From NCBI GenBank assembly GCA_048213135.1, contig PS015264.1, forward strand, positions 20,538 to 61,144: a DNA stretch of 40,607 bases. Direction: 5' to 3'. Numbering within the stretch: the first letter of the stretch is position 1; every line of letters begins with the position of its first letter. Made by a program: the position numbers and the translations under genes. Under the pieces are notes generated by a model that made no database searches, had not been told where the DNA came from, and saw nothing but the letters and a program-made list of their open reading frames with translations. The DNA comes from Reclinomonas americana ATCC 50394. Its lineage: Eukaryota. This document shows positions 205 through 34,741 of this stretch, piece by piece.

Positions 205-364
205 CTGAGCACCTTCCTCTTTCTCTTTCTCTGACCGCACAAATCACGCAAGAGTGCAAACGCAAACATTCCTCTCTACTCGCAACCTCATCCTTCAGTG
301 TGCGAGTATAAGTGCAGTTTGTGTGACCGTGACGCAGCTCACACCACAGCTCTCAGATTCTCTA

Positions 365-497: not shown

Positions 498-532
498 CTG
501 TCCTCTCCACCCCTCCTCCCTCCCACACAAAC

Positions 533-6433: not shown

Positions 6434-9400
6434 TTACGGACTGAACGACAGCTCAAAGGTCACTCGGCAAAACACGAAAAAGATGACGGCCATGATCGCC
6501 TGCAGCAGGAACCAGAAGCCCATCACCGACGGACCCATGATGCCAGACGAGCGGTTGATGACAAACGGCGGCGTCTGCGAGAACGACTTGCGCGGCACGA
6601 CGTTCTGCGGCGGTGGTCGCACCGGTGGTCGCAGATCAGCAGCCGCACGTAACCGCTCGTCAGCCGACAAGGAGGCCATGGAGATGCGCTCACGAGGTGG
6701 GCTGGCCGCAGCGGTGTGGTGCTTGCGACGGCGGGATGCGGGAGGCGACGGTTGCTTGGGCGAGGCATCCACCAGCGCAAAGCAGTCGACACGCGTGATA
6801 TCGCGAGTCACTGCACGCTCGTCCACTTCGTCCACAGTGGCGGCGGTCGCCGCCGACACTGGCGGTGGTGATTGAGGCGATGCGCTTGACGCAGCATTGA
6901 CCTTGCCGTGCACCGACTCGAGCAGCTCGACAATGCGTTCCTGGCGCTGCGATTCGACCGACGACTCTTGCTGACGGCGCAGCGAAGCAGTGACTTTCTT
7001 CACCGCCGAGGCCGCGGCCTCCTCGGCCACCGACACCATCTCCTGACGCATGGCCTGGCGCATGTCCAGCATGGCGGCTGTGACGAAAAGGGACAGGATG
7101 AGCTAAAGGAGGGCAAGAGAAAAAAGAGTGTGGACACACGCACCCTTCATCTCGCGTGCGAGCTGCGCCGCAAGCTCGGACACTGCACTCTCCACAACCT
7201 TTTGTGGGTTGGACGCCTGCGGAATGGCGTCGAGGCGTTCGGCCACTTGCTGCACCACGGCGTCGTGCTTGTTCTGCACAGTGCGAATGTCGCCAATCTG
7301 CTCCTCGATGCGGGTGATGCAGTCTGCGTGCGGCGGAGAGGGTGAGCTGCTGCTGATTTTAGTCGCCAGGGACACAGAGGGGGAGACAAACCGTGCCAGT
7401 TGGTCTTCTCGACGGTGTCAACAGTCTCGCCAGCAGTAGCAACAATGCCTGCGTACGTGCAAAAGGCGGTGAGGAGTGGGAGGGATAGAGAGACCGGGGT
7501 TACTGCTCACTGTGCGCACCACCAGCAGACTTCACGAAGCGGGCGGCTACCAGGTCGGTCACGCTGTCGCTAATCTGCGACGCACGCTGCAGCAGCGGGG
7601 TCACAGTTGACGAGGGAACCGCATTGGCAGTGCGGTGGAGAGCGGCGATAATGTCGGTCTCCAGGTGCTGCGCAAAGCCTGTGTGGTGTGGTGGTGGTGG
7701 TGGGGGGTGAGTTTCGTGTGTGCTTGGAGAGATCATCGGAATGTGCGAATGCACGCACCTTCCATGCGCTTGCTGAGTTGGCCTTCGCGGTTCTGAATGG
7801 CCTCCTTGGTGGCGGCGCAGGCCTTTTCAGCCAGGCGCTCCGACAGGGTCGAGAATTCCTCTGTGCGAAAGGGGGAAGTGAGTGAGGGGGAGGGCGGAGA
7901 AGGAAGAAAGGAGAAGGAGATAACGGAGAGGGAGAAAAGGGAGAGGGAGATAAGGGAGAGGGAGATAAGGGAGAGGGAGATAAGGGAGAGGGAGCTAAGG
8001 GAGAGGGAGCTAAGGGAGAGGGGGATAAGGGAGAGGGAGATAAGGGAGAGGGAGATAAGAGAGGGAGCTCAGGGAGAGGAAGATAAGGAAGATGGAGACG
8101 GAAAGGGAGAGGTAAGAGGAAGAGGAAGAGGGAAAGCGGGTAGAGGGAACAGGGAACAGGGAAAAGGGAAGAGCGAAGAGGGAAGAGGGAAGAGGGGAAG
8201 AGGGAGAGACTGAGACAAAGCAGACTGGGAGAACGGCACTCAACTCTCAAACTTGTCCTGCGCCAGCTCGCTGGCAGTGCGCTTGGAGACGGCCGACACA
8301 GTTCGGTCAATCATCTCGCTGACGCTGTCTTGCGTGGAGCGGAACCACTCTGCGTGCCATGGAGTTGAGAGGCACGAAACTGAACGACGGGTAAGGCAAC
8401 AAAGATCTCACGAACCAGTCATGTGATCGCTGAGTGCAGCGCGCAGCTGCTTCGAAAGCAGGCCAAAGGTGCCGACTCGAAGGCGAATCGACTCGGCCTC
8501 CACCATATTGTCGGCGTCTGTTATGCAAAACAGTCAGCGCACAGAAAGAGGACGCTGGCCTGCATGTCGTTCTGACGCACCAGCCACCGCCTCGGCCACC
8601 GCTTGGCGAGCCTCGTCGGGCGAGTAGGAAGTTGCAAACTTGCCGTTCTCCAGCTGCTGGTTGACCACGGCAATGGCCGCAAAGCACTCATTGATGCGCT
8701 CCGCGTTGCCGGCCGTAGCTTGTATGATCTCTGCGCGATGATGTGTACCGAAATCAGCACCCTGCATGACGACGACGAGAGACATGAAGAACATGCGCCT
8801 CACTCACCCTGCAGGTGAGCCAGCACCACATGGTGCTCCTTGGCAGACTCGAGTCGCAGCACTTTCTCTGCACGAGCGAAAGAGAGAGAAATCATAAGCA
8901 AAGAAAACGACGCGAAAATGCACGAGGAGTGCCAAGGACCTTGCAGGCGCTCCAACTCGGAGAACAGTCGGCGGTAGTAGGTGGGGGCTGCGCGCATTTC
9001 AGAGTGAGGCAAAGTAAGATGAAAGGCAGGAGAGAAGGATTAACTCACAAACTGCACTGCGGGTGCCGCCCGGCGACATGGAGTGGAACGACTGCTCGAG
9101 CGACCCAGAGCTGGTGTTCAACGCCGGTGGAGCCGGAAGGGTGCGGAAACGGACCTTCTCGCGCTGCTCGCGAGTGACGCGCGTCATCTCGGCGTGCTTC
9201 TGGCGCATCTGGTCAATGGCGTCACACACTTCGCTCGGGTTCGACGCCGTCGAGGTGGTGGTGGTGTCGGCGGCCGCGGTGGTGGTGGTGGTGGTGGTCG
9301 CGGAGGTGACAGTTGTTGCGATGCTCGGCTCGCTTTGCATGCGCTGAAGGAGTGGCTTGACGGCCTTGAGCATGGCCTCGTGGTGCTTCAGGATGTCTGC

Positions 9401-11388
9401 CGGGGTGAGAGGCAAGGGTGGGTAATGGGGAAGAGGGACAGGAGAAGGGGAAGAGGGTGGAAGAGGGTGGAAGAGGGTGGAAGAGGGTGCAAGAGGGAAG
9501 GAGAGGAAGGACGAGGGAGGAAGAGGGGGAAAGAGGGAGGAAGAGGGAGGAAGAGGGTGGAAGAGGGAGGAAGAGGGAGGAAGAGGGAGGAAGAGGGACA
9601 GGAGAAGGGGAAGAGGGAGGAAGAGGGAGGAAGAGGGAGGAAGAGGGAGGAAGAGGGAGGAAGAGGGAGGAAGAGGGAGGAAGAGGGAGGAAGAGGGAGG
9701 AAGAGGGAGGAAGAGGGAGGAAGAGGGAGGAAGAGAGGGGAAGAGAGGGGAAGAGGGTGGAAGAGGGTGGAAGAGGGTGGAAGAGGGCGAAAGAGGGTGG
9801 AAGAGGGAAGACTAGAGAGAAGAAAAGGAGAGCGAGGAGAGAGATGCAAGAGTGAGAAGAGAGACGGGAGCAGCGGTGGAAAGGAGGCGCGAACAGGAAG
9901 ATAAACAACAGTGAGATGGCAGACATCATACGCAGTTTGGTGGGTGATGTATGTGAAAGAAAGAAGCGGCAAGGAGAGAGGAAATATCAAGAAAAGAAAG
10001 TGTCTGAGAAATGCCCATTCCCTTTCCACATACCTCGCTGCTGCTCGCTAATGGCGCTCTGGCTGCCGCGAATCGTGTCGAGGTCGCCGGCAAACTCCTG
10101 CAGCAGCTCGTTCATGAACGCGGTAAAGTGCGCGCGCATGTCCACCTCCTCCGCCTGAGCAGGCATCGCCAAGGCCGCTTGCGCCTCGGCGGTGGCCGTC
10201 GACATGACAGAAGTGCTGGTGCCGCGAATGCCCTCCATGAGGTCGTGCAGCTGGTCTTGGATGAAGAGGATTTGCGTGCGCAAATCGTCGGCCACCGTGC
10301 TCAGCTCCTGGCCAGTGACAACATCGGCGGGGAGACCGCTCATGAGCGACGAGTTGAGCGAGCCGCGACGAGCTATTTTTTCGAGCAAAAGAGTCAGGAA
10401 AATGATGGAAAAAGGGAGTTAATGAGACCCGTACTCACCACGAGCGACCGAGGACGGCGTGCCGAGGTTGAGCACAGCGGGTGAGCGCAGACCAGCAAAC
10501 AGGTCGCCGGCCGTGCACGGGGTAATCGGCAGCACGTCGGGCTCCACCAGACCCTCAGTGAGGATGCTGACCGAGCCGCGGCGGTGAATCGACATGGGCG
10601 TGGTGGCGGCAGCAATGACGGCGGCCACCGCACTGCTGCTGTTGCTGCTGCTCTGCTTGATCTCTTTCTCCTTCTCGGAGAGACGCGCCTCCAGCTCACG
10701 CATCTTCAGGTAGTTCTCGTTGATCTCGTGCAGCCACTCCTGCTCCTTGTGCATGTACTCGAGCTCGACCTGCTGCAGCTTCTCGCAGTCTTGCATCGAC
10801 TCGGTGATCTGCAACGACGAACATCAAATAAGCTCGCACGCGTCACAACAAGACTGCGTTTGCGTGAAAGGCACACCTGTCGCTCCAGATCACGAATGCG
10901 CGTCTCCTTCTCCAGCAATTCGCGATTGAGATCGCGCATGTCGGTCGGCAGCTGGAACGAGGGGCGACGAGTGGCGGAGAGCGGGGTGTTGCTGCCACCG
11001 ACACTGGTGTTGAGCACGGCGCTGCCAGTGGACATGGTCGCGCGGTGTCGCGACACCACCGACGACGGAGGAGGCACGGCCGGCGATCGAGTCGACGACA
11101 GGAAGCAGTGCAACGCGTCGCACGAGTCGTCCAGTGGCGATCGCTCCGAAGCCGGTTCAGGCGCCGGTGGCGACGCGCCCAGGAACGAGTTGCTGGGCGA
11201 CATGCCTTCAGAGAGAGAGAGAGAGACACACACACCAATGAGAATATGACAAACGGTTTGTGAGGCAACAATGCACGCACCTGGTCCAAAGCTGCACGGT
11301 GACGGAATGTGCTCATCGTCCAGCAATGCAGCCGCGCTGTTCTTGCGCTGCATGCACCATCGTGTGTGAGTGAGCGCGACAGACAGAC

Positions 11389-11426
<38 letters not shown>

Positions 11427-11755
11427 CGCGCAGCACTCACCCGTGTCGACAAGGCGTGAATGGGCGAGTCCAATGGCATGAGCTCCCCGCCCGTGGGCGA
11501 CAACTGCAGTGCCGACGAGAGGCTAATGACCGACACCTTGCGCGCACTGGCATCATACGAGGCATACAGTGGCGTGGTCTCCTCATCGTCGCCTCCAATC
11601 TCCTCGGCCTCCTCCACACGCGGAGGTGACGAGGCCTCAAAGAGATCATACACGCCCTGCTTTTGCACGGCCAGGCGCACTGAGCGCCGCACAATCTCCT
11701 CTGCCGAGGAGGACGAGTCGCCCATCAACGGCAACGAGTTGTCGAGGTAGTCCAT
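6434..11755 (-). CDS. Long coiled-coil protein with a single C-terminal transmembrane anchor; about 16 exons
   Basis: About 15 GT-AG introns join MDYLDNSLPL... (ATG 11755) to TAA 6434-6436 in one frame. Heptad-like segments include DLNRELLEKETRIRDLERQ|ITESMQDCEKLQQVELE and KMRELEARLSEKEKEIK. It ends GFWFLLQAIMAVIFFVFCRVTFELSFSP*. Confidence 0.7.
7915..8075. repeat. Intronic 15-bp minisatellite (GGGAGAGGGAGATAA)n
   Basis: About 10 slightly variable units inside an intron of the coiled-coil gene. Confidence 0.9.
9430..9810. repeat. Intronic 10-bp minisatellite (AAGAGGGAGG)n
   Basis: More than 30 units, with AAGAGGGTGG variants at both ends. Confidence 0.95.
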
Positions 11756-12558: not shown

Positions 12559-15500
12559 TCATCTCACACCGACCAATATGTCCTCGAGCTGGCGGAGCAC
12601 GTGATCGACACTGTGACCGCCGCGCACCGCAGCGTCAGAAAAATGATACGATACAGCGAACAAATCTACTACAAAGCGCCGCACCTGGTTCTCTCGTCGG
12701 CGCGCCAGCGCAGACAGTGCGCCACGATTTCGACGTAGGCAGGTGGCACCGTGTAGCCACTTGCATCGCGCGCCAGCATCTCCGGTTGTAATCTCAAGTC
12801 CAGTGACTCTGCGCGCGACGATGAGAGATGGTGGGAACCAGTATCTAAGAAGGGAGAAGGAGAAACCTGTGGACAGTCCGTGGACGACCATCATCGGTTG
12901 CATGTGGGCAAAGGGTTTTCGCAGCGTGGCCAGCTCCCACAGCACCAGGCCGAGGCACCAGACGTCGGCTGGGGGAAGGAGAGAAAGGGAAGGGGAAGGG
13001 AAGGGAAGAGGAAGGGGAGGGAAGGGGAAAGGAGGAGGAAAGGAGGGGAGAAGGAGGGGAAGAAAGGGGAGGGGAAGGGGAAGAGAGCGAGAAGAGTGGG
13101 GAAGGAGGGGAAGGAGGGGAAGGAGGAAAGGTGGGAAGGAGGAGAATGGAAAGAGAAGGACAAAAGGGAATGAGAGAGGGGCCGGAGAGAGGGGAAGAGA
13201 AAACAGGGAAGTGAAGGGAGGGAAAGAGGGAAAAGAAGGGAAAGATAAGAGAGGTGCGAAGGAAAGAGGGAGAGGGTAAGTGAGGGAAGGAATGAGAAGG
13301 AGGAAAGTAGGCAGAGCATGAATGGAAACGGATGACACAAACAGACAGAGAATGAATGAATGAGAAGAGACAACGAAAAAAGGAACGAGAAGGAAGATCG
13401 CGCACGCGTGTGTGTGTGAGAGGAGAGAATAGCGAGAAGAGGGAGTCAATTAACAACTCAGCGAAGTAGACGAATGCTCACGTGGGATACCTTTCAGAGA
13501 GTACCGTTCACCACGACCGACCTCAGGCGCCAGGTACACGAGCGTGCCGATTTGTGTCATGGTGGTGGTGGTCTCGGCCAGGCGGGCGAGGCCGTAGTCG
13601 CCAATCTTGGCTTCCCAGTCGTCGGTGATGAAGATGTTCTCGGTTTTGACGTCGCGGTGGATGCTGTTGCAGGGGGAGTGAGGTGGGACTGACACGAGAA
13701 GGAGGGAGGGTACAACACAACGCAACATTGGCTGCGGTAATGAGTGGAGAAAGTAGAGTCCGCGCACAATGCCCCGTGCGATCTGCAGAGTGCGGTCAGT
13801 TGTCCACGGGTCGGTGGCGAGCCGATCCTGTGAGAGGCAATCTGCCAAGCTGCCGCGCTCTGCGTACTCGGTGACGAGGGCGTTCTGCAGGCGAGCAGGG
13901 GTGAGTGAGAGTGGAACAGAGGAACGATCATCCGCATACCTGCTTCTCTGTCGCCACGATACCCAGGCACTTGAGAAGATTCGGATGACGGAGGGCAGAC
14001 AGCACGCGAACTTCGCCGGCAAAGGCTCTCATGGAGCGATCGGCCTCGGCGTCGCGCTCCGGCGATAAGCCAAGAACCCTGCGGGAAAGAACGATGAACG
14101 ACGACAATAAGATTGCTTTCTGCGGATGAGTTGTGCATCGAAGTTGCACATTCCTTCCTTTTCTCCGTCTCTCTCCTACAGTACGAATGCAGACGATTGT
14201 TCCTTTTTCCCTCTCTCTGTATTCTGCGCATCCAGAGCAGTACATCGCCCTCTTGCGCACAACAGGATTCCCTGTGTTCCTCCTCTCACCCTCTCTTCCA
14301 TGTTTCTCTGCTTCTACAAAAATTAAGATCTACAGCTGTTGTATCGAATGCATCTCAGTCAGTCACTCTCAGAGCCGGAGAGAGGTAGAAAGAGATAAAG
14401 AGAGCAAGAGACGCAGGCGAATAAAACAGAGAGCAGAGACCGAGCGCGTGGCATCCCTCACTTTCTCCCCCTTCCCCATCACACGCACCACGGCACGCGG
14501 AAACACTTGACGGCCACATGCAGTCCATTCCAGTCGGCCAGAAACACATCACCGAATGAGCCGACGCCGATGCGCTCGAGGGCCTCCACCTCCGACGGCG
14601 GAATGACCTTGATGCGAGCGTCTTCTGGTCCGTAGCGGCTGTCCATCTCGGGATCTGGCGCGGCAATGTACTGCAACCCGCTGGCGTGAGTGCCACACCG
14701 ACATTTTCGCTGTGCCTCGCAGCACGCAACTCGAACAAGCGGCGAGTACTGCCCAGAGGCGGCGGCCGACGAGGGGGCTGATGAAGGAAACGAGGCCTCG
14801 CTGGCCCCTCCAGTGGCGGAGGAGGCGTTGGACAAGCGCGGCGACGCGCCACCACCGTAGTACACGCTGTCGGTGTCGCCGCTGTTGATGTCGGTGCGGA
14901 TGAGGGGGGACATGTCGTCCTCGCGGAGGGTGATGCGCGTGCTCTCCGCCTTGGCCGCCTGGCTCTCCTCGACCATGAAGCGGAAGACCAGGAAGAAGCC
15001 GGAGGGGATGACCAGGGCCGTACTCTGGAGAAAAGGGAGAGGGTGGGCGAGGAGAAGGGGAAGGGGAAAGGAAAAGGGGAAAGAGAGGAGAGGGAGAAGG
15101 GAGAGGGTGGGCAAGGGAAGGGGAAGGGGGAAGGAGATAAGAGGGGAGAGGGGAGAGGGAGGGAATGGAAAGGGTGGGCAAGGGAAGGGGAAGGAGAATT
15201 AGGGGGAAGGAGAGGGGGGAGAGGAGAGAGGGGAGAGGAGAGAGGGGAGAGGAGAGAGGGGAGAGGAGAGAGGGGAGAGGAAAGAGAGGAGAGCGGAGAA
15301 GGGGAAGGAGATAAGAGGGTAGAGGGGAGAGGGAGGGAAGGGAAAGGGGACAGGGGAGAGGGAGAGGGAGATAGCGGAGAGGGAGAGGGAGAGGAGAGAA
15401 GGGAGTGGTGAGAGGAAGAGGTGAGAGGAAGAGGTGAGAGAGGGAGAGGGGAGAGGGAGAGGGGAGAGGGAGAGGGGAGAAAGGAGAGCGAAACGGAAGA

Positions 15501-17102
15501 GGAAGGGAAGGGGAGTACAAGCCACCATGCAAGGACATGAGAAGAGTGAACGAAAGAAAAGGACAGCTGGAAAGAAGGAAAGAGAGAAAGAGCAACAATG
15601 CCACAGATGAGCAAGCGAGAGAGGATGGCTGAATGGATACACGTATGAGGCACGGAGGGAGTGCATGAATGCGGAATAGGTAAGCGTTGTTGGTTAAGCA
15701 TGTGAAGAGACTAACGAAGGACAGACAGAGAGAAAGACAAAATAAAGAGAGGAGAGAGAAGGAGAAAGAAACACATTGTGACAGGCCAAGAATAAAAGAA
15801 AGAAACAACGTCAGCAAACAGTTGGAAAACGAAGAGAGGAAAGTCAGCAAGACAACGAAGAGAAAAGAGGCACACATGCGAGCAAATAACAAACAACGAA
15901 GGAAGCACTGCATGTACATGCATGGGTAATGAACGACGCTCTCTGCCGGTCAACAGACGAGCAGATCTTGTGTGCCAACAATTATCATGCCCCCACAACG
16001 CAACAATCACAAAACAATCGAACGTGTTGGTGGTCTCTGGCACATCTCCCGGAAACAGAGCAACAGACTGCGTACAGACCGTCAGCTGCCAAACAAGACC
16101 CCACTCGTGACGACTTGCACCGCCCTGCACACCAGAATATCCAACAAAACAACCGAAGTCCACGTGCAGAAAATGTACAGGGCACAGCTCAGCTCCCAAA
16201 AGCCGCCACGCCGAATGATGGCATTCACCAGGGCGATGGTGGCCAGTGCCCACAACAGTCCATTGACGACACACAGCTGGATCCAATACATGCGGTTGCG
16301 CGACAGGTTCTGCAAGGGAAAGGAGTCACCGGAAGAAAGAGATGGACGACAATACGGGGACTCTGCCTCCCCCGTCGCTCACCAGCGCCAGCATGGCTCC
16401 CGTCAATAGCAACGCGGAAATGATGCAGTTGGCCACCCACGGTAATCTGGGCGACGGCAGTGGGCGGCAGCATCGGCGGCGTCGGCGCTCAAAACTGGCG
16501 TAATCGTCCGGCGCGTCTCGCCGAGTCAGCAGGGCGCAGGCGGCGTACGCCGTGAGAATGTACTGCAGCAAAATGGTGAGTGGCTGGTGTGTTTGACTGC
16601 AAGAGAAAGGGAGGCGGAAGCGCACCAGCATGACGTTGCCGACGCTGAGTTTCTTGCTGTAGAGGCCGATCAGTCTGCGAGAAGGGGGATTAGAAATACA
16701 CAGAGAGTCGTGGGGGGCGAGAGAGAAAGACGCACGGTGCGAATGCCAAGTAGATCCACATTCCCTGCGGCAATGTGAGAGAGGGTAAAGCAAAGGTAGG
16801 AGTAGGAGACGCGAACCGTTGCGACCAGGTGGAACACCACGTATTCTGTATGGTAAGGCGGGTGGTGAGGCAAATGAAGGGAACAAGGCATGTGGAACAC
16901 GCGGGACAGGAAAAGAGACGATGAGAACGAGGACAAGTGACGGAAAGGAGAGGAAGATGGCGAGAAGGAGGAGGAGAGAGGAGAAGGAGAAGGAGAAGGA
17001 GGAAGATGTGAGATGAGAAACAGGGAGCCCGCAGCGAGGATGCAATGCAATCAACAAGTGAGTGAGAGACAGTGCTCCTCGCATCCTCTCTCTCTCTCTC
17101 AC

Positions 17103-17165: not shown

Positions 17166-18063
17166 NNNNNNNNNNNNNNNNNNNNNNNNNNNNNNNNNNN
17201 NNNNNNNNNNNNNNNNNNNNNNNNNNNNNNNNNNNNNNNNNNNNNNNNNNNNNNNNNNNNNNNNNNNNNNNNNNNNNNNNNNNNNNNNNNNNNNNNNNNN
17301 NNNNNNNNNNNNNNNNNNNNNNNNNNNNNNNNNNNNNNNNNNNNNNNNNNNNNNNNNNNNNNNNNNNNNNNNNNNNNNNNNNNNNNNNNNNNNNNNNNNN
17401 NNNNNNNNNNNNNNNNNNNNNNNNNNNNNNNNNNNNNNNNNNNNNNNNNNNNNNNNNNNNNNNNNNNNNNNNNNNNNNNNNNNNNNNNNNNNNNNNNNNN
17501 NNNNNNNNNNNNNNNNNNNNNNNNNNNNNNNNNNNNNNNNNNNNNNNNNNNNNNNNNNNNNNNNNNNNNNNNNNNNNNNNNNNNNNNNNNNNNNNNNNNN
17601 NNNNNNNNNNNNNNNNNNNNNNNNNNNNNNNNNNNNNNNNNNNNNNNNNNNNNNNNNNNNNNNNNNNNNNNNNNNNNNNNNNNNNNNNNNNNNNNNNNNN
17701 NNNNNNNNNNNNNNNNNNNNNNNNNNNNNNNNNNNNNNNNNNNNNNNNNNNNNNNNNNNNNNNNNNNNNNNNNNNNNNNNNNNNNNNNNNNNNNNNNNNN
17801 NNNNNNNNNNNNNNNNNNNNNNNNNNNNNNNNNNNNNNNNNNNNNNNNNNNNNNNNNNNNNNNNNNNNNNNNNNNNNNNNNNNNNNNNNNNNNNNNNNNN
17901 NNNNNNNNNNNNNNNNNNNNNNNNNNNNNNNNNNNNNNNNNNNNNNNNNNNNNNNNNNNNNNNNNNNNNNNNNNNNNNNNNNNNNNNNNNNNNNNNNNNN
18001 NNNNNNNNNNNNNNNNNNNNNNNNNNNNNNNNNNNNNNNNNNNNNNNNNNNNNNNNCCTGCAT
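12559..18063 (-). CDS. Multi-pass membrane receptor fused to TKL-type protein kinase (paralogue A); first exons hidden in gap 17166-18056
   Basis: Kinase motifs: IGVGSFGDV, VAVK, EVRVLSALRHPNLL, PIIHRDVKTEN, KIGDYGLAR, GTLVYLAPE, DVWCLG; stop TGA 12559-12561. Six hydrophobic segments are visible upstream (16850-15000) and are collinear with the neighbouring paralogue. The start at 18063 is only a candidate ATG next to the gap. Confidence 0.85.
17166..18056. other. Assembly gap (others at 23550-23569, 26043-26363, 29542-30032, 30954-31031, 39155-39174, 39458-39950)
   Basis: Runs of N, mostly abutting microsatellites. Confidence 0.99.
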
Positions 18064-18274: not shown

Positions 18275-21200
18275 TCACAGTACGTCCGACAATGGTGACG
18301 AATTGCCGGTGGATCGGGGCATCGATGTGGGTCCCTGCAGTTGCCGCAGAGCGTCCACGACTTGTTCCATGCTGTGCACAAAGCGTGAGTGAGTTTTGCA
18401 CACCGGCAAATGGTGACGTCCACACACCTCGGTCGCGTGGCCGGATCCAGTTGCAGGCACTGGTTTGTCAACGCAATCCACTCTTGCGGCAACGTGCTGC
18501 CGTCCTCGTCCACCGCGACATCGGCGTCACTAAGTTCCAAAGAGAGGCGACCGGTGGCAAGTCCGTGCAGGACCGCCATGGGAGCCAGGCCGTTGAATGG
18601 TCGCTTGCGGGTCGCCAGTTCCCACATAATGACGCCAAAGCTCCACACGTCGGCTGCGATGACACGAGAAGAATGAGGACGACGAGGAGGCAGTGGGTGG
18701 GCAGCGAGCGGCGGACAGAAGATAGCAAAGGTGGTGCACGTGTGAAGGAGTGAAGCCCACAATACAGAATGCTCACATCACATTTTGTTCCCACAAGCCG
18801 AGGTGGACGAGATGTGGAGCGATCGAGGAGCAGGTCTCGCAAACCCACACAAGAGAGAAAGGCGTACCGTTGGAGCAACAAATATATGGTAAGCGAGAAG
18901 AGGAACATGAAGACGACATGAGTGAACAATGAAGAAGACGTGGTGGCGGAACTCAGACGAAGGAAGAACATGTGAAGGAGTGAAGCCCACAACACACGAC
19001 GCTCACGTCACATTTTGCAGGTGATTTGGATGTGAGCGCAGCATCACAACCTACGTGAAAGAAAGGTGCATCGTTGGAGCTACGATAAGACAAAGCGAGA
19101 AGAGGAACATGAAGACGACATGTGTAAACAAATGAAACAGAAGTTGAGGCGAAACTCAGGTAAAGGAAGCGAACAACGAATGTCGCGCCCTGTGTTCGCA
19201 CTGCTCCTCCATATGTTGCAAAAGGAAAGCATGTGAGCAGCATCGAAACACACGTCAAAGAAGGGTGCATCTTTGGGAACAGGCACTGCGAGTGCACTGA
19301 GAGGGAATTCTACCCATCTTTCCCCACTACACCTATTTCCCCACCCCTCTTCTCCCCACACACTCACCCTGCGTCGAGTACCGTGCTCCCTGCGCCAGCT
19401 CTGGCGACATGTACTGCGGCGTGCCGACACGCGTCATTGTCGCCGTGGACTCTTGCAGACGCGCGAGTCCATAGTCGCCGACTTTTGGTGTCCACGAGTG
19501 CGTCAGGAAGACGTTGTCGCTCTTGACGTCGCGGTGCACTCTGCAGCGAGAAAGAGAGTGAGAGAGGGGATCTTCGCTTCTCTCACTCTGGTATTCTATC
19601 TAATTTTTCTACTCGCACTCGTTCACACCAACTCTGACTGTGCATCTCGATCTCCCTCGTCCCTCCACCCTTGTCCCTCCTCTCTCTCTCTCCCTCTCCC
19701 TCTCTCTCTCTGTCTTCTCATTCAACGCAACAATGGCGGCTGCAATGTGTGCAGGTAGTGCAGGCCACGCGCCACGCCCAGTGCAATCGACACGGCCATT
19801 GTCGGCGTGATGGGATCTTGACGAAACCGCACTGGATCCAGGCAGTCGGCGAGACTGCCGCGTTCGGCAAACTCGGTAATGAGAGCATTCTGCAACAGCG
19901 TCACAGTCATTCAGGAGCATAGAAAGGACAGCGGCGAGATATATACACACGCACATCCGACTCGGTGATCATGACACCGAGGCACGAGAGGAGGTTGGGG
20001 TGGCGCAGCGAGGCCATGACACGCACTTCGCCAGCGAATTGCTGCATCAAGTCTGCCATGTATTCGTCTTTCGCCTCCGAGTGTCCCAGTTGCCTGCAGT
20101 GCGACAGACAAGAGAGTTACTCTATCCCCTTCCCATTCCACTCTCTTCTTTGGCGCTGTCTTCTCTCTCCCTGGGTCTCTTGTTTCCTTCTTCTCTCCGT
20201 CTCTCGGACCCTCATATCTCTCTCTCTCTCTCACTCACTCTCTTTCTTTCTCTCTCTCTCACACACACATACAAACTCACTCTCTTCTCACTATCACTGA
20301 CTTTTCGATCTCTTTCTCTCATAGCTTGTCTTCCTTCTCATTCTTCCTTACTCTGCACTCGCACGCACCATGGAACCCGAAAGCACTTGACAGCCACTCG
20401 CACACCGTGCCACGTGCCCAGGTACACGTCACCGAATGCGCCGGCGCCCACTCGTCGACCAACGACAATGTCTTGCGGCTGGATAATTTGTACGCGCACG
20501 TCGTTGGGCCCGTAGCGCATGTCGAGTTGCTTGTCGGGTTGGGTAATGTACTGCTTGGGTGTGGCAGAGAGGTGAGAATCGCGGGTGCGAGATACTCATG
20601 GATAGAAATGTCGACGCACTCGCAAAAGTCGAGCGACGGCCGCCGACTCGGCCATTTCCATGCTGCTGTTGATGCGAATGCGCGGACTGCCCATGGGAGT
20701 TCGCGGTGGTGTGAGCAGTGGAGAGCCCTCCGAGAGGTAGGCGGATGCAGGATACTGGCGACTTTCTTCAATAAGGAAGAGCACCACGGTGAAGAAGCTG
20801 CAGCGGGGGACACGTAATCAGCGACGAGGGTGCTCGGCGAAGAGATGAGATGCGCACCCTAGTGTCACTGTCACGTCGTCGAGCTGCGGCGGAGAGGTGG
20901 TGATTGAGGGCACACAAGGCGAAGACAAGGCATGGGCAAGTCACCAGTGTCAGGCAGTTGAGCGTGTTGTCGCCGGTGGGTGCCAGCAACCGTGGGTTGG
21001 GATCGGGAGTCTGCAGCGGTTGGTGAGGTCAGCAGCAAGAGAGGAGCGAAACGCCTTCTTACCACTACGCACCGCATGAGCCAATGGGACGCAGAGTGCG
21101 GCGGTAAAGGCCAAGATGAGTAGGCAGTACGCGGTGCACATGAGCTCCCACAGGCCGGCGCGCGCGGACAGGGAATTGAGGAGAGCTAGAAGTGCCAGGG

Positions 21201-23435
21201 CGGCGAGGAAGGAGGAGAGGGCGGCGAAGGCGTAGTGCGAGGCCGGGCGGTGGAGGAGACTCTGTGGAATGGGGGAAAGGGGGTAATGAGGGGGGATAGT
21301 AGGGGAAGGGGTGGTGGGGGAAGGGATGGTAAGGGGAAGGGATGATGTGGGAGGTGGCGATGAGAGACGAAGTGAAAGCGTAAGGGATGAGGAGGGAAGG
21401 GATGAGGAGGGAAGAGATGCAGAGGGGGGATGAAGAAGGAGGGAGCGATGGGGGAAGGGATGATGAGAGATGAGATCCTGAGGGTAGAATGGGAGGGAAC
21501 CGGATGAAGAAGAAGGAATGGGAGGGAACCGGATGAAGAAGAAGGAATGGTAGAGAACGGATGATAAGGGAAGGGATTATGTGGGAAGTGGAGAACAGAG
21601 ATGAAGTGAAGACGGAAGCGATGAGGAGTGAAGGGATGAGGAGTGATTGGATGATGAGAGAAGTAATGATGAGAGGGCGGACGGTGGGGTATGGACGATG
21701 AAGGAAGGGATGAGGAAGGAAGGGAAGATAAGCAAAGAGTTAATGAGGAAAGGGATGATGAGGAAAGGGATGATCAGAGGAAACGAAGAAACAAAAGAAG
21801 GGCAAAAGAGAGCAGAGAGGAGGAGTGAGGGGGGATGCTGTGGGAACTAATACGGGAAGAAATGGTGAGAAAGGGAAGATATCGTAAGGAAACGTTAAGT
21901 AGGGAATGGCTGAAGATGGAAGAAAGCAGTGATGGGACAAGGAGGGAAAGCGTGAAGAGAAAGACAGGGTGGACGAAGAAGGAATGAAGAGAGGGAAGTG
22001 AGGGAGAAAGTTCAAAGTGTTTAGACGAGACACATGAAGGCGAGCAACGCAGAGCCTGCGGATGAAAACGAATGATTTGCAGCCAAAGTTGGGAAGATGG
22101 ACGAGCCAAAATTGGGAAGATTGACGAGCGACATTGCAGGAGTGTGTGACTCAATCCCGCACTTACCGCCGCCAGCACAGCCCACAAGCCCATGATCGCG
22201 CCGACGGCAATGTTGATGACCCACGGCCTCAGAACCCTGTCGAGGCGCGACGGCTTGTGCCAGCGTGCGCAGAGGGCGCGGCAGAAACCAATCTTGCGTG
22301 GTGGCGGTGGTCGAGTTCGTGACAGCGTCGCGGTCACCGCATAGGCGATCATGAAGTACTGCAAGCACGTGTGAGAGTGACGGATTACAAGCGCCGCAAG
22401 TGAAAGAGTGCGGGGACCTGAGAAAAGAAGGAAAACTGCGAGTACTGAGTGAGGCCGTCGACGTGGAACCACCTGCCATGTGCATAGAGGGTGAGATTTG
22501 ATGACAAGACAAGGGGAGGGGGAAAGGGAGAGTTTTTCACACCTGCCGATGAGCATCATCAGCCAGAGCATCTGTGTGAGAGGATTTGAGTGGCTGCATG
22601 CATTGTGTGTGTGAGAGAGAGATTTCAAGAGAGGGTACCGTTGACACCGCCAGGAACGCTGCATGCTCTGCGCGTGGAGGAATGAGTACAGGTGAGGGAG
22701 GGTACGAGTGAGCTGTTGCTCACCAGTGCGAATGGCCAGGCGCCCCGATGGTGCTCGTTTCCACGTCAGGTAGCCCTGTCGGACAAGGTCGGTGGGGAAG
22801 GGAGAAGAGATGGAGGGAAGCGGGGAAGGGAATGAGAGAGAGAGAGAGAGCACGGAGGCTCCGCACTGCATCTCACTCTCTTCTTTCTTGAGAGAGGCAG
22901 ACAACGGTGAGAACTGGGACGCATAATCAGTCCGAGAGATGTTCTCATCTGAAGGAGATATGCAGTCGTCTCACGTTCGTGTTGCTGTCTCCGCGAGCTG
23001 TATTCTCTGCGTGCCACTGAACACATCTGTGGAAAGGGGAACCAGAGCGAGAGAGGGAACTCTCTTCATGCGACTGTGTGGTCTTGAGACGAGTAGAGGA
23101 AGGAAGGAAGGAAGGAAAGAAGGAAGGAAGGAGAGAGAGAGAGAGAGAGAGAGAGACTGAAGAGGAGCAACCATCTCGCGCTGGCCTGTGATGCAGACTC
23201 TGTGCAGTACGGCGCCTGACTCAGCAGGAGGAAACCTCTTCGCGTTACTGCTTGCGATACGGCGTTCTCTTTCGATGACCGCTGTGCACACTTGCACTCC
23301 TGCCTCGCTGTCTCGTGCAGCTTGACAACTCTTTGCCTCCAGCAGCGCTGCTGCGAGGACAAGTTCGCACTTCTTGTCTGACTTCTTGCACATCAATCTG
23401 CATGCATGATTTGCACTGATTCTCGCTGCCCTCTC

Positions 23436-23488
<53 letters not shown>

Positions 23489-23670
23489 ACTACACTACTA
23501 CGACTACACGACGTACTTACGGAACGTTCGTACCAAGGTTACGTACCTANNNNNNNNNNNNNNNNNNNNCGTTCGTTCGTTACTTCGTTCGTACACTACT
23601 ACTACTACTATCGTACTACGTCGTACTAGTAGTTTAGTTCGTACTACTCGTACTCTCTCTCGTCCTCCTC

Positions 23671-23710
<40 letters not shown>

Positions 23711-24152
23711 CACACACGGACAACACACAGGTCAAGCATGCAGAATCTGTCTCAAGACACAATCCCTCTAGCTCTCACTCTGCCTCTCACTTCCACACAT
23801 TCTCTCCCTCTCTCTCGCACTCTCACAGACTCTTCTCTCTCTCTCACTCACTCTCACGAACACCCAAACGCACACATCACATGTTGTTCTCACTGCTTTC
23901 ACTCATTTCCCTCTCTCTCTTTCCCCTCTTTCCCCTCTTTCCCCTCCTTTCCCCCCTTCTCTCTCCCTCTCACTCTCTCACTCACCAACACCGCACACAC
24001 TAAAGTCTGCGTGAGAATCGTGCACGCAGAGATGATGCCGAACCACGTGAAGCCACCGACCTGCACAGAGATGAGCACAAACACACACAGAGAGAGAGAG
24101 AGAGAAGAGACAAAACTCCTTCATAGTAGATGTCGTAGCACCAGGTGCTCAT
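18275..24152 (-). CDS. 7-transmembrane receptor fused to TKL-type protein kinase (paralogue B); about 17 exons
   Basis: [12 protein letters not shown] (24152-24117) | [25 protein letters not shown] (24060-23986) | GYLTWKR (from 22775) is followed by six more hydrophobic segments. The kinase then has [47 protein letters not shown] and [10 protein letters not shown]. Stop TGA 18275-18277. Confidence 0.85.
18741..19275. repeat. Intronic tandem duplication, about 230-bp unit, two copies plus a partial third
   Basis: TGTGAAGGAGTGAAGCCCACAA at 18741 and 18971. AAGCGAGAAGAGGAACATGAAGACGACATG occurs in both copies. Confidence 0.9.
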
Positions 24153-24471: not shown

Positions 24472-25554
24472 TCACCACTTCGTGCTCGAAAACTCTTGAT
24501 ACTTGTTCCAGTCGGCGCTTGGCGGTGCTGCTGCTGCAGGTGGCGGAGGAAGTGGCGGTGGGGGCGGTGGTGGCGGCGGTGGTGCTGCTGCTGTTGAAGC
24601 AAAACTGACGGGCGCACCAGGACCGCCGGCAGCCATGATACCGGGGAAAGCCGGCATCAGTGTGGCGATGATGAGGAAGGCGCCAATGGTGGGATCCTCG
24701 GGGCACGCGATGCGAGTGCCGACGCTAGACAACTGCACAAACTCGGATGGCGGCATCGAAGGCACCGGCAGGTGGGCTTCTCCCGTCTGGGAGCGAGCGC
24801 GCCACGGCTCGGAGGCTGTGTTCAGGGGAAGGGATGAGAGAAGATTCACAGCGAGGGAGAGAGAGACATGAACAGGGAAAGTAAGGGAGGCGGTCCTGGT
24901 TCAAATGCGCAAGATATCGATTGGAGCGTGAGGAAGATCGGGTACAAGAGGAAACGAGACAGCAGAAGAGGATTTGGAATGAGTTATGGAAGAAAGGACT
25001 GTACACGTGAAGCGCAAAGGTGTGGGTCAGTGGACGTGCAGTCTCTCCAGAAGCGAGCACTAACAGAAGGGAGGAGAAAAGATCAAAAGAGTTGTCTCTG
25101 GTGTGTGATTTCGCAACTCAGAGCACACTTGACCGATCCGCCTCGGAACAGCATGTCGAGGGTGACGGCAACAGTGGACCAGCAGGGCACAAAACTCTCA
25201 AGCGCATACACACTGTGTATGGAATGCAAGAGTGAGGGAGAGACAGGAGAGCGCAGTCGTGTAAAGAGAAACGACGAAACTTGAGGAGATCCTCCAGCTT
25301 TTGTCCGTGGGCAGCCACCATGGTCTTCACCGCATGCGACGCGTAGAGGACTGTGCACATGACGCAAAGGCGCGGGTCAGTGGTTGTGCAATCTCTCAAT
25401 TGATTGGCAAGCGGCTGGCCAACGGAAGGGAGGAGAAAGTGAACAAGCTGTCGCAGTGTTCGAAGCGGCGTGTCACAGCGAGTCACTCCCAGCAAAGCGG
25501 AGGACGACGTGGGAAACCAGAAAGGGAAAGAAGAGATTAACTCCTAATTGGCAT
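24472..25554 (-). CDS. Possible small multi-exon gene or degenerate gene fragment, Pro-rich C-terminal exon
   Basis: Exon-like blocks have plausible GT/AG ends (LYASHAVKTMVAAHGQKLEDLL|NVYALESFVPCWSTVAVTLDMLFRGGS; ASEPWRAR...FPGIMAAGG...PPPPPPPPPP...TKW*). I could not join them all in one frame. Confidence 0.3.
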
Positions 25555-25959: not shown

Positions 25960-27913
25960 TCACTCTGGACAAGCTGGTGAGCTCTCCCACTGCGCAATGT
26001 GTGGCACATACAGCGCATAGAACCCTAACATTGGGAGGAGGANNNNNNNNNNNNNNNNNNNNNNNNNNNNNNNNNNNNNNNNNNNNNNNNNNNNNNNNNN
26101 NNNNNNNNNNNNNNNNNNNNNNNNNNNNNNNNNNNNNNNNNNNNNNNNNNNNNNNNNNNNNNNNNNNNNNNNNNNNNNNNNNNNNNNNNNNNNNNNNNNN
26201 NNNNNNNNNNNNNNNNNNNNNNNNNNNNNNNNNNNNNNNNNNNNNNNNNNNNNNNNNNNNNNNNNNNNNNNNNNNNNNNNNNNNNNNNNNNNNNNNNNNN
26301 NNNNNNNNNNNNNNNNNNNNNNNNNNNNNNNNNNNNNNNNNNNNNNNNNNNNNNNNNNNNNNNGGAGGGAGGGAGAGAGTCTCGTTCCTCCCTCCCTCCC
26401 ACCACCCCGCACCACTCACCTTTGCAGTCGGTGCCGACCAGCAACACGATACCGGGAAACGTGGCGTAATTGGCCTCCAACATGGTAACCAGCGCCGGCA
26501 CAAACATGCGGCTGCTACGAAGCCGGCGAGGAGACATGACCAGCAGTGAGTCCACCGTGAAAGGCACAGGCGTGTTCGGTGTGCACGATCCGAACATGCC
26601 CGGAACAAACGATTGCAGCGGCACTGGCGGCGGTGGAGGAGGCGGTGGAGGCGGTGGTGGTGCAACGACCGTTGGAATGATCGAGAACAATGGTGGTGCA
26701 CAGCTCTCCCCAGCAAAGGTTGCCTGCAGGAGATAATAAGTCAGTTGCAAACTCCGCGGACGAAAAAATCCCATACACCACCAATAAAAAAACGTTCGCG
26801 AATATGTGCAGTGCCCTGACGTCAACACTCCTTCTGCACACGTACAAAAGACATTGCTCTGTTTTCACGGTGTGCATTCGCCTCACTCGTACTTCATCTT
26901 CCCGCGCGTCGTCACGCACAGGCACGCGCTCGACGCTGCGCAAGCATTGTGATTGTAATATTCCCCTCCTAATTGACTGGACACACTCTGTCTTCGCAGT
27001 ATCGGTTGTCTTTCTACTTTGTGCAGCTATCTCTATATGTCTCCCACTGATGCTGTCAGCACCGTGCTATGCGCTGTCCACCCACGATTGCAAGCGTACA
27101 TACCGGTTGGCGGCGACAATGTCGTTTTCTATGCGGGGGGCCGGCGTCCTCCTCGTGCACTTCTTCCTGCTTGCCATGTTGATCGTCGCCACCACCATCG
27201 CCAATGGTGAGTCGAGTGCGCTTCAACAGTGCGCGTCTGTCCTCGCTCGCCACCTGCTGCACCTGCAATGGCGCCAGTGCAGGAGTGGCCATGGTGCCGG
27301 TGACATCGGCGAGGCGACTCGGCGGCTCAGCGCCACGTGCGCGAATCCACCGACGCTCCTTGGCACGACGGTTTTGGAACCAGATCGCCACCACCTTACT
27401 GTGGAGGCAGAGAGAGCGAGAGAGAGGGAAAGTGAGTGTCGATACGGAAAGATTCAAAAACTCTCGCACTGAGTGCTCTACGGAGTGACGTGATCATGAC
27501 GCAACGAGGTGAGGTTGAGGTCGGCTGCAATGCGCGCCTTCTCCAGTGACGACGGGTACCGAGTGTGCGTGAAAAGGCACTCCAGTGCTTGCCTCTGTTT
27601 TGGTTTGTTTTTGCAGTGAGGGATTCTTTTTTGGGAGGAAATCATCATGGCAATACACACACACACACACCTCTTGCTTGGTGAGTCGGCGTGAGGTCCA
27701 CTCCTGCAGCAGCAGCAGCAACAGCAGCACGCGCATTCAGAGAACGTGTGTGGCACAGGGAGAGAGAGAGAGAGGAGATACCTGGACAAGCTTGTCGTCG
27801 ATGCCGTTCTCCTTCTCCCTCTGCTCCTCCTCGAGCTCCTCCTCCTCCTCCTCGGCCTCGCAGTCATGGTATTCGCGCATGAGCGTGGGCGCATACGTCA
27901 TCGGGGGGTTCAT
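25960..27913 (-). CDS. Homeodomain transcription factor (non-TALE, Q50) with acidic N-terminus and poly-Pro C-terminal region
   Basis: The spliced homeodomain reads EWTSRRLTKQE|RQALECLFTHTRYPSSLEKARIAADLNLTS|KVVAIWFQNRRAKERR (about 27703-27345), with the hallmark L16/F20, YP and WFQNRR. The downstream exons and the stop at 25960 are less certain because the model crosses gap 26043-26363. Confidence 0.8.
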
Positions 27914-32085: not shown

Positions 32086-34741
32086 GGTACAGCTTGTCGT
32101 GCTGCTGCTGAGGATTAGGCTGCGGCGAATAGGTGCGCGTGGATGCAGAAGCTTCGATACAACTGTTATCTTTCAGTGCGATTTTACGCTTTTCCTGCTG
32201 ATCATCGATAGAGAGAGAGAGGGAGAGAGAGAGAGAGAGGCGAGGCTTGAGTGTGCTGTTGCGTTGAATCAGACTCCGATGGTGCTCAAGAGAAAGGGTG
32301 TGCATGAATGCAGAGGCTGTTGTTTTGATTGTCATTCTGTGCTATTTTCTCGAGTACGACAGAGTGGTGCATGTGAGAAGGGCGTGCACGTTGTTTTTCA
32401 CGGTGCCTTTCGCAAATTGACGAAGAGAGATGGAGAGATTGAGAGAAAGATGGAAGAGCGAGTCAGGTGCAGCTTGCAGTGTTGCTGCGGAGGATGAAGC
32501 TGCGGCGTAGGGTGCACGTGAATGCAGACGCTTGTCGATACAACTATTATCTTTCAGTGCGATTTCGTTAGTGAAGAGAGAGGCTAGTTTCCGGTGCTCT
32601 GGAGGAACAGGTTGACGACATGCTGAAGAGAAGGGTCCACGTGAATGCTGGTCGATGATCTGGTTGCCTTTCTTTACCTATCAGAATTACTTATTGTTGA
32701 GGAGAAGGGTATGCGAGAGAGCTCATCGAGGTCTTGATTCGGATCTCATTCCTTCTTCTCCTTGTGTCAGGACTTTCTCCACCCCCGCATGCGCGATTTT
32801 GTCGCCGGCAAGATTACGCTCGACGAACTGTCCAGCGACACGGGCATTCCGCGCATCCGCTGCATGCCAGTGTTTACCGAGGAGTTTGAAGAGTTGCGCA
32901 GAGATGCCCAACCTGTTGTTGCCACAATCTCACTCACTTGGGTTGCAGAAAGCTGTTGCTGGAGGTGGAGCGATTCGAGCAGCAGGTCGACGAGAGGTGT
33001 CGGCCGAATTCCATGAACAATGTTGCGTGACTGCGAGGCAAAGGAGCAGATACAGGCAAAGTGAGCGTGCAGCCGCTTACCCTTTGTTGACATGCAGGAG
33101 GGCACCGTCATGTCAGAGCTCGGCATGACTGCATTCTTCGACGCCTTTGTGGAGCACTGTGCGCGTCCCATCGGCGCTCTCTTGTACGCGGATCGCGGAG
33201 GCGCCACTCTCAACACGCAGCATTCGTTCACGGTAAAATGTTGCGTCGCCGTGTTCTCTCAGCGACGGTTCTCTCTCACTCTTGCACACGCGCGCTCTCT
33301 CTCTCTCTGTCTGCCTGTCTGTCTCGCTGTCTCTGTCTCTCTCTCACCTCTCTCTCTAATTATCTGCCTGCTTGCTGTCTGTCTCTCTCTCTCACACACA
33401 CACCGTTCTCTCGCACTCCTGCATTTTCTCTCTCTCTCACTGTTCTCTCGCACTGCTGCACACGCTATCTCTCTCTGTTTCCCTCTCGCTGTCCGTCTAT
33501 CTCTCTCTCTCTCGCTCTCTCTCTGCCTGCCTGTCTCGCTGTCTCTGTTTCACTCGCTGTCTATCTCTCTCTCTCTCTCTCTATCTGTCTGTCGCTGTCT
33601 GTCTCTCACACTCCTTCTCCTTTCTTCTCTCTTTCTCTCCCTGTCTGCGTGCTGCTCTTCTTTTCTCGCGTGTTTCTTTTCTCTCTCTCTTTTCTCTCTC
33701 TCCTCTCTCTCGTCACTTTTCGTCTCTGTTTCTCTCTCTTTATATCTATTTATTTCTCACTCTCTCGTATACGTGCACGTGCAATATGTCTCGCTCGATC
33801 CCTGTCCGTGTGCTTCTCTTCCTTTCTCGCGTGTACAGTCTCTTTCTCTCTTGTCTCTCTATCTTTCTCTTTCTCGTTACTCAGTCTCTATCGCACTCTG
33901 TCTCAGTCTCTCTTGCTCTCTTTCTCTTTATCTATGCGTGTCTCCCTCTCTCTCACTCACAAGTTCAGTTCCCCTACTGCCTCCGTGCCGTCTTCCTTTC
34001 TTCCCCCTCTCCCTCTTCTCACTGATCCCTCACTCCTCCACGCTGTCTTTCTTTTTTCTCTCCCTCTCAATCTCTATTCTCCCCCCTTCCCCCCCTCTCT
34101 CTCCCCCCCTTCTCCCTCCCCCTCTCCCCCTCTCCCTCACTCTCTCCCACTCTCTCACCCTCTCCCTTTTCTCACTCACCTCTCTTTCCCCCTTCCCCTC
34201 TCTGTCTCCCCCGCAGACCGCCCTCAAGGCGACGTCGACCTCGACTTCCACACCGACGACAGCGAGGTCACCTTCAACGTGTGCCTGTCGCACGAATTCA
34301 CCGGTGGCAATCTGTACTTTCGCGGCATTCGTGACGACCCGGCGGAGACCGGCGAGGAGTACGCCGAGTGGGTGCACCAGCCGGGAGTGGGCATTGTTGC
34401 GTTCCGAGAGCTACCGGCGTGTCGGTGTCCTCCGCTTTTTGCTTAACCCCCCGCAGGTGCACCTGGGAGCGCACAGACACGGCGCGCTGCCGATTCGCAG
34501 CGGCACGCGCGTGAATCTAATCGTGTGGTGCCGCTCGCAAGACCACCGCGTGCACGCACTGCTGGACGTGTGGAATCAGCAGGCAGAGGTGCGCGCCGCC
34601 GGCACGTTCCCGTCGCCCGACGAGGACTCGCCAGGGGTGTGTCCGCATTGCGCTCGCCAGCATCCACCAGGCGATCACGATCGTGCCGCCGATGAGGATG
34701 GTGGTGGTGGTGGTGGTGGTGGACCGTATCCGCATGATTAA
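31418..34741 (+). CDS. 2-oxoglutarate/Fe(II)-dependent dioxygenase, PLOD (lysyl hydroxylase) catalytic-domain-like; 5' end uncertain (secure from 31552)
   Basis: Spliced product: PVFTEEFE|EKLLLEVE...RPNSMNN|EG...HSFTVK|YRPQGDVDLDFHTDDSEVTFNVCL...FTGGNLYF...HLGAHRHGALPIRSGTRVNLIVW. It has the HxD...H iron triad and the 2OG-binding Arg. Confidence 0.88.
31763..32570. repeat. Intronic array of about 125-bp units separated by (GA)n
   Basis: ATGCAAGGTRCAGCTTGTCGT...TGCGGCGAA...TCTTTCAGTGCGATTTTACGCTT occurs three times in tandem, with a fourth diverged copy at about 32465-32570. Confidence 0.9.

Follow-up and report, generated by a model that had tools for sequence, protein, structure and literature searches.

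A predicted seven-helix protein fused to a TKL kinase in Reclinomonas americana carries a conserved lysosome-type sorting motif

Introduction

Proteins in which a seven-transmembrane (7TM) domain is fused to a protein kinase have been reported in Dictyostelium (7TMK1 and 7TMK2; PMC1420674), in oomycetes and amoebozoans such as Acanthamoeba (PMC5784254), in sponges and acanthoecid choanoflagellates, the latter contributing 92 of a cluster of 176 (PMC12716839), and in ciliates (PMC10463195). Here we describe gene A, which lies in a 40,607-nt stretch of Reclinomonas americana ATCC 50394 (assembly GCA_048213135.1, contig PS015264.1, positions 20,538 to 61,144 of the forward strand; hereafter the window, whose own numbering is used) and is predicted to encode a fusion of seven membrane helices and a tyrosine kinase-like (TKL) kinase. 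An initial annotation of this locus had called such fusions rare and patchy, which is overstated given the reports from choanoflagellates, sponges, Acanthamoeba, and ciliates.

According to PMC12716839, no 7TM-kinase fusion has yet been characterized functionally; the same paper reads the choanoflagellate and sponge examples as repeated independent fusions. Most oomycete kinases have been placed in a clade other than TKL (PMC10463195), and direct activation is among the models put forward for G protein-coupled receptor (GPCR)-bigrams (PMC6033456). The two Naegleria rows in Table S1 of PMC5784254 list no GPCR-TKL, and a literature search, outside which most subscription papers lay, returned no 7TM-kinase fusion from jakobids or other Discoba and no report on the sorting of 7TMK1. 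Gene A and its paralogues would add a lineage beyond those reported, with a membrane domain lacking detected relatives.

Gene structure, paralogues, and kinase domain

Splicing the minus-strand reading by coordinates gave a model of 17 exons, running from an ATG at 24152 to a TGA at 18275 and coding for 633 amino acids (aa), with no internal stop and GT..AG at 16/16 introns. The predicted product has a seven-helix domain (aa ~19-259), a linker, and a TKL kinase (aa ~337-612), all in one frame with the helices N-terminal to the kinase, which is the GPCR-bigram architecture. Exon 1 (24117..24152) supplies the ATG and a short N-terminus with a Trp-Cys pair (Cys5, 24138-24140). It encodes no signal peptide, an in-frame stop lies seven codons 5′ of the ATG, and its donor, GTTTTG, is atypical. 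Exon 2 (23986..24060) encodes helix 1 and is followed by a 1,210-nt intron 2 (22776..23985) that contains an assembly gap at 23550-23569. The initial annotation had likewise drawn a single many-exon gene with seven hydrophobic segments, and all seven segments that it quoted are present in the 17-exon model.

Three paralogues were found. Gene B (12559..16845, minus strand) is a tandem copy directly downstream of gene A, 26% identical to it in the membrane part and 50% in the kinase; 14 exons, from helix 2 to the stop, are visible in the window, with 13/13 introns GT-AG. An assembly gap (17166..18056) conceals its 5′ exons, two of which (helix 1 and loop 1) can be seen in the second haplotype of the locus, contig C418 (L009 2247-2167 and 2091-2037). 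Paralogue C is complete (622 aa) and paralogue D is interrupted by a gap and has one GC donor; both lie on other contigs. Across the four proteins, identity is 25-48% in the membrane parts and 50-78% in the kinase parts (the values for D come from 78 columns). Five introns have GTTGCG donors (window 19731, 16004, 14730, and 13726, and L011 3740).

The assembly contains both haplotypes: a search with exon 8 hit eight places in four pairs, and the same four pairs were recovered with a kinase exon and with an exon of another paralogue. Between the gene A haplotypes, all 33 aligned bases of exon 1 and all 75 of exon 2 are the same. The membrane exons show 26 synonymous changes and 1 replacement, the linker 10 and 0 plus a four-codon in-frame deletion, and the kinase part 31 and 1, giving 67 synonymous versus 2 replacement changes over all coding parts, while 66/677 bases differ in the short introns. 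Because synonymous changes far outnumber replacements, both halves of gene A are under purifying selection, and the same pattern argues that the model did not arise by chance. The haplotypes also differ by one codon following the ATG.

These data bear on whether the fusion might be an artefact of prediction, with membrane and kinase exons belonging to separate transcripts or helix 1 not truly joined across the gapped intron. Two features would suit such an artefact: the 69-nt intron between linker and kinase (20551..20619) has an in-frame stop in the window copy, and intron 2 holds the assembly gap. The helix 7-kinase joint nevertheless holds, since paralogue D has helix 7 end, linker, and kinase N-lobe within a single 342-nt exon, and in the second haplotype of gene A the intron forms an open frame. 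The joint across intron 2 likewise holds, as the same intron is only 58-89 nt long and gap-free in B, C, and D. All four genes also have eight intron positions in common, with the same phases, and purifying selection spans both halves. We therefore regard an artefact as highly improbable and gene A as a genuine gene, predicted to encode one polypeptide with a seven-helix domain and a TKL kinase.

The kinase is encoded by exon 12 (20369..20550; a family-specific pre-kinase segment, the glycine loop, and the VAVK lysine), exons 13 (20093-19955) and 14 (19889-19732), which together provide the helix C glutamate, hinge, and helix E (19732..20093), exon 15 (19368..19540; an 11-residue stretch, then the activation segment with GT), and exons 16 (18653-18428) and 17 (18371-18275), which encode the end of the C-lobe, a short tail, and the stop (18275..18653). 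All catalytic motifs are intact: GxGxFG at 344, K364 of VAVK, the helix C glutamate in GEVR at 391, HRD at 471, DYG at 491, and GT..Y..PE at 508. PF07714 and PF00069 match exons 12-16, with PF07714 scoring higher on 4/5 kinase exons. Against solved structures, a C-lobe exon of paralogue C was closest to DLK/MAP3K12, followed by NEK7 and CTR1, with NEK7 above both CTR1 and ZAK. The activation-segment GT is present in 3/3 complete paralogues, at the position (PKA T201) used as a criterion to tell Ser/Thr from tyrosine-accepting kinases (PMC1420674). On these motifs, the gene A kinase is an intact TKL kinase, as the initial annotation had it; it is of the Ser/Thr type and predicted to be active. 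DYG replaces DFG in A, B, and C, the three complete paralogues (window 19490 region). The segment directly before the glycine loop is also conserved (its exon has 26/61 invariant columns) and may be a regulatory element.

Membrane domain and topology

The remaining membrane exons run from helix 1 to helix 7. In exon 3 (22724..22775) helix 1 ends and the basic cytosolic loop 1 follows; exons 4 (22667-22639) and 5 (22571-22543) encode helix 2 (22543..22667); exon 6 (22418..22472) an outer loop and the start of helix 3; exon 7 (22167..22358) the rest of helix 3, a cytosolic loop with 10 K/R, an invariant Pro-Trp, and helix 4; exon 8 (21073..21261) helices 5 and 6, with invariant N185, G192, W194, E195, and C198; exon 9 (20945..21010) the last outer loop with invariant Cys238 (20954-20956); and exon 10 (20858..20883) the first half of helix 7. 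In Kyte-Doolittle plots with 19-residue windows, helices 1 to 7 of gene A peaked at 1.99, 1.61, 1.11, 2.03, 2.21, 2.34, and 2.06, and B, C, and D also showed seven peaks preceding the kinase. The count of seven proposed initially was thus borne out in all four proteins, with helix 3 weak. Helices 6 and 7 scored ≥1.5 in 4/4 proteins.

Basic loops lie on the cytosolic side of membranes (the positive-inside rule). Loops 1, 3, and 5 plus the tail are rich in K and R, with counts against the opposite side of 16/2, 18/5, 14/1, and 12/3 in the four proteins, so the N-terminus is predicted to lie outside and the kinase inside. Helix 3 was supported by charge, as the summed K+R bias fell from 47 to 10 when it was omitted; omitting helix 1 left the bias at 47. 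The best topology is therefore predicted to be N-out/C-in, with a cytosolic kinase.

Invariant columns include Cys238, the Pro-Trp before helix 4, a G-x-W-E-x-x-C where helix 6 begins, and, past helix 7, an EES. A Trp-Cys pair stands near the start of A, C, and D, the N-terminal Cys being present in 3/3 paralogues with a visible first exon, and the Cys of the last outer loop (loop 6) is kept in 4/4. The initial annotation had paired these two outer cysteines; both are conserved, and a Cys5-Cys238 disulfide in gene A is plausible. There is no N-glycosylation sequon in the membrane part of gene A.

The same exons allowed us to weigh the possibility that gene A encodes a true GPCR, in which the bundle would activate a heterotrimeric G protein and the kinase would act as a parallel output or desensitize the receptor by phosphorylating it. 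In the classical GPCR classes (A, B, C, and F), a disulfide typically links the top of helix 3 to the second outer loop. We found no Cys at either place in 4/4 paralogues: the second outer loop, after helix 4, is 8 residues long and Cys-free, and loop 5 has only 9 residues. No GPCR profile matched any of 21 membrane and linker pieces (9 + 12; 25-143 aa each), and the cAMP receptor family PF05462, which matches pieces on other contigs of the genome, was silent at the four loci. A long basic loop does follow helix 3, and the genome has cAMP-receptor-like pieces and G-alpha genes on several contigs (33 matches), one fragment of which matches Gi/Gt/Go structures. Overall, we judge a true GPCR distinctly unlikely.

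The linker motif and a predicted cellular location

Exon 11 (20620..20797) encodes the end of helix 7, the invariant EES, and the weakly conserved linker. Between helix 7 and the kinase the linkers are 40-76 residues long with 4 invariant columns of 82, and two of those four are the P and L of an acidic dileucine motif, E-G-S-P-L-L in gene A (aa 273-278; 20713..20730). A [DE]xxPL[LI] motif occurs in 4/4 paralogues, 8-19 residues past EES, and proteins A, B, and D contain no other [DE]xxxL[LI]. Shuffled linkers yielded [DE]xxPL[LI] with a chance of 0.002-0.015 per linker. An acidic dileucine with proline is the adaptor protein (AP)-3 signal that sends the seven-helix proteins PQLC2 and Ypq1 to the lysosome (PMC4649669), and the R. 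americana genome encodes AP-1 and AP-3 sigma subunits. The motif is thus of lysosome type and suggests endomembranes or digestive compartments rather than the cell surface. Its conservation in these fusions is new here and offers a lead on where they act. Just past the motif, a 12-base in-frame indel separates the haplotypes (L009 5033-5198 versus window 20620-20797).

PQLC2 and Ypq1-3, whose EREPLL and EQQPLL provide a model for the sorting step (PMC4649669), differ from the gene A family in lacking a kinase and in having conserved PQ motifs; we found no sequence relation between them.

We propose that the gene A product is an endosome or food-vacuole sensor kinase, a reading that we hold to be evenly balanced between right and wrong. 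From its N-terminus, short and luminal, the polypeptide would pass through seven membrane helices to a linker in the cytosol and then to the Ser/Thr-type TKL kinase. A bond between the two outer cysteines would probably hold the last outer loop and the N-terminus together as a lid over the helix bundle. AP complexes would probably read the dileucine motif, with endosomes, lysosomes, or food vacuoles as the destination of the protein. There, the membrane domain would sense a luminal or membrane cue, for example a digestion product, a lipid, or pH. The kinase would be switched directly, either as helix 7 and the linker move or as the protein dimerizes and its activation segment is trans-phosphorylated, and no G protein would be needed for this. 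With divergent membrane parts and conserved kinases, the four paralogues may receive different inputs and give a similar output. If the location is right, such proteins monitor what endosomes or food vacuoles contain, and not the outside world.

Several points count against this proposal. Its sensor role is predicted from architecture, and the gene model from genomic sequence. Helix 3 is the weakest helix (1.11-1.67 across the paralogues), and windows in the soluble kinase reach 1.0-1.53. Omitting helix 6 or helix 7 gives an equally strong charge bias with the kinase outside (−48 and −42). The N-out/C-in arrangement read initially from the basic loops stands as the best topology, but a cytosolic kinase requires helices 6 and 7 both to cross the membrane and does not follow from charge by itself. 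The four dileucine motifs share one ancestry and so reflect conservation, not independent tests, and motifs of this kind can also direct a surface receptor into AP-2 endocytosis. Finally, the likeness to 7TMK1 described below is unscored, and a profile of helices 3-6 did not retrieve 7TMK1.

The AP-2 point leads to a second account of the same protein, a cell-surface one-component receptor kinase in which an outside ligand switches the kinase and the dileucine motif mediates endocytosis for down-regulation. The topology, the cysteine pair, and the intact kinase fit it equally, direct activation has been proposed for GPCR-bigrams (PMC6033456), and one of at least three adaptor sigma loci in the genome could not be assigned. 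The proline before the leucines, however, has been described for cargoes of the AP-3 route (PMC4649669), and the gene A protein has no large ectodomain and no sequon in its membrane part. We consider a surface receptor possible though doubtful. A GPCR-like surface receptor, as in the initial annotation, is a tentative description: the second outer loop is short and Cys-free, no GPCR profile matched the pieces scanned, and the lysosome-type motif points to endomembranes.

Search for relatives of the membrane domain

A profile of helices 3-6 retrieved no protein at E ≤ 0.001 among 1,835,955,588 representatives, a set that holds few intron-rich genes, those of the R. americana genome itself included. 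The alignment used has some intron-derived columns; the other 3/4 fragment alignments put helix 5 on helix 4 and were dropped. In a leave-one-out trial with the same profile type, the omitted paralogue was recovered in 3/3 cases, at 58, 72, and 77 bits, so relatives at ~25-30% identity should have been detected. The profile also gave nothing at E ≤ 10 against PDB sequences, and Pfam named no 7TM family on the 21 pieces. A model of a four-helix fragment, which carried an intron insert, matched generic helical hairpins, with no 7TM family prominent; two fragments gave nothing above 0.83 in the ESM Atlas. JGI metagenomes yielded 175 pattern matches, of which none was confirmed. With kinase-side queries, a pre-kinase/N-lobe profile had one match among 1,477 candidates, an unrelated twin kinase, and a C-lobe exon had seven among 427, all generic kinases at 38-49% identity. 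The membrane domain is without a detected relative, and its family is not assignable from these comparisons, as the initial annotation had stated.

Individual families were also compared. A fold check against THH1/TOM1 and GPR137 had been suggested initially: PF06454 matched nine times on other contigs and never at these loci, with the best cross-score of the membrane profile within a PF06454 locus being E 0.33. PF10160 (TPRA1/CAND2) gave no match in the genome, where one candidate was scored and exons of 9-64 codons limit the power of the search, or among exon pieces. PF05875 (CREST/alkaline ceramidase) matched other contigs and none of these loci.

The last family matters for a further alternative, in which the seven helices form a transporter, a channel, a degenerate lipid hydrolase, or a plain anchor, with a kinase that regulates them or is merely positioned by them. 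Polar residues do lie within helices, including an Asp inside helix 7 of A, C, and D; lysosomal seven-helix proteins with the same motif include transporters (PMC4649669); and the N-terminal Trp-Cys, together with a His or Ser where helix 2 ends, recalls alkaline ceramidases (PMC6303388). A ceramidase identity was nonetheless rejected. Scored with the four-row membrane profile, the genome's own alkaline ceramidase reached −1.2 bits, and hhalign gave it 0.02%. The CREST set of SxxxH (helix 2), Asp (helix 3), and HxxxH (helix 7) is complete in no paralogue, HxxxH being absent in 4/4. There is also no conserved PQ motif, and we regard this alternative as quite unlikely. Two PF05875 members were seen elsewhere: a nine-exon alkaline ceramidase with intact motifs (L042 633-1970, contig C206) and a second member, apparently without introns (L039 ~1083-1940, contig C209).

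Comparison with described fusions

The closest described system by eye is dictyostelid 7TMK1 (D. discoideum DDB0229939 and three orthologues; PMC1420674; PMC5784254, Table S3b), which likewise combines a 7TM domain with a C-terminal TKL kinase. Our comparison covered the first 400 residues, by eye and with no alignment score. 7TMK1 has a short N-terminus with an aromatic-Cys pair, and its helix 1 ends ~40 residues further on (38-40 in the R. americana family). A short basic loop leads to a Trp that opens helix 6, a Cys marks the outer side where helix 7 begins, and, in 4/4 dictyostelid rows, E-F-x-P-L-L lies 33 residues past the helix 7 Cys (31-42 in the R. americana family). It differs in that its first inner loop is long and its second outer loop contains two Cys and exceeds the 8 residues of the R. 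americana family. The kinases differ as well, 7TMK1 showing DFG and HRDLSTKN against DYG, HRDVK[ST][DE]N, and GT; 7TMK1 is predicted to be tyrosine-accepting (PMC1420674), a pattern from which the GT of the R. americana family departs. The dileucine motif visible in Dictyostelium 7TMK1 offers a concrete lead in a model amoeba.

7TMK1 resembles the TPRA1/GPR175/CAND2 family, which shares seven helices and an N-terminal Cys with the gene A family. Both also have aromatic and acidic residues directly following helix 7, DFFxE[ED] in TPRA1/CAND2 and F..EES in the gene A family. The plant motifs QxWEC, LEhS, and Y[LP]PhhY described for TPRA1/CAND2 (PMC12252195) are absent from the gene A family. With no match to PF10160 in the short-exon search above, a TPRA1 identity is unsupported.

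The other fusions were more distant. Dictyostelium 7TMK2 and Acanthamoeba ACA1_123760 and ACA1_257010 combine a 7TM domain and a kinase, but by eye lack the N-terminal aromatic-Cys; the 7TMK2 kinase is classed as "Other," and ACA1_257010 has P-L-L after helix 7 with the acidic residue absent. GPCR-TKLs of oomycetes have the same domain order and predicted topology. P. infestans has 17 of them, and eight of these carry a DEP domain (PMC5784254), which the gene A family lacks. The oomycete protein PITG_10049, the single one compared out of ~100 TKL rows, has no N-terminal Cys and none of the invariant motifs of the gene A family. Acanthoecid GPCR-TKL/K and choanoflagellate and sponge GPCR-TK proteins, compared by description only, have a 7TM cluster of their own fused to a kinase (PMC12716839). 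The EF-1alpha of the genome studied here lacks the insertion characteristic of opisthokonts, so its host is neither a choanoflagellate nor a sponge.

The gene A family and amoebozoan 7TMK1 might descend from one ancient endolysosomal seven-helix sensor-TKL fusion predating the split of Amoebozoa and Discoba, which we consider unlikely. True homology with 7TMK1 would make the fusion far older than assumed; a common origin would contradict the current view of all 7TM-kinase fusions as independent, and a one-component "food-vacuole receptor kinase" of phagotrophs would date back to the last eukaryotic common ancestor.

Other features of the window and genome

On the 5′ side of gene A, poly-proline frames lie on the minus strand at 24472-24900 and 26367-26864 with no Pfam match; the former ends ~320 bases before the gene A ATG and is kept in the other haplotype. 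An intron-split homeodomain gene follows at 27059-27897 (minus strand), both halves of which match PF00046 (E 4e-08 and 2e-05). Elsewhere in the window we noted a multi-exon NHL-repeat protein (300-1635, minus strand; PF01436, E 1.8e-05 on one piece) and a long multi-exon coiled-coil-like gene with one terminal hydrophobic segment, resembling a tail-anchored protein (6433-11753, minus strand). Exons at 34234-34741 (plus strand) encode H-x-D and then H...R, with no Pfam match on two pieces; we take this arrangement to recall the 2-oxoglutarate/Fe(II) oxygenase motif. Megabase contigs C1 and C2 carry a 1,521-base small-subunit rRNA, cox1, GreA, and EF-Tu and are probably from co-cultured bacteria. 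Among marker genes, an HSP90 exon was at most 78% identical to any sequence listed and 75% to named proteins. An HSP90 tree of 88 rows, built from quick-search hits that covered both exons (the Tsukubamonas and Leishmania rows were among those dropped), joined the gene to a single sequence and did not place it in a group. An actin fragment and G-alpha, compared with the PDB, gave no lineage signal. Genome searches for a phage-type RNA polymerase and for arrestin, both run with no positive control, gave no match; lack of the polymerase fits jakobids as described in PMC7050145, but the jakobid of that paper has an intron-poor genome of 20 Mb. GreA matched the bacterial contig only, with no eukaryotic copy found. 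On these markers a jakobid host is about as likely as not. Finally, divergent actin-like genes are numerous in the genome (PF00022 gave 132 exon matches, for example on C60, C29, and C551; L018), and several of them are clustered on one contig.

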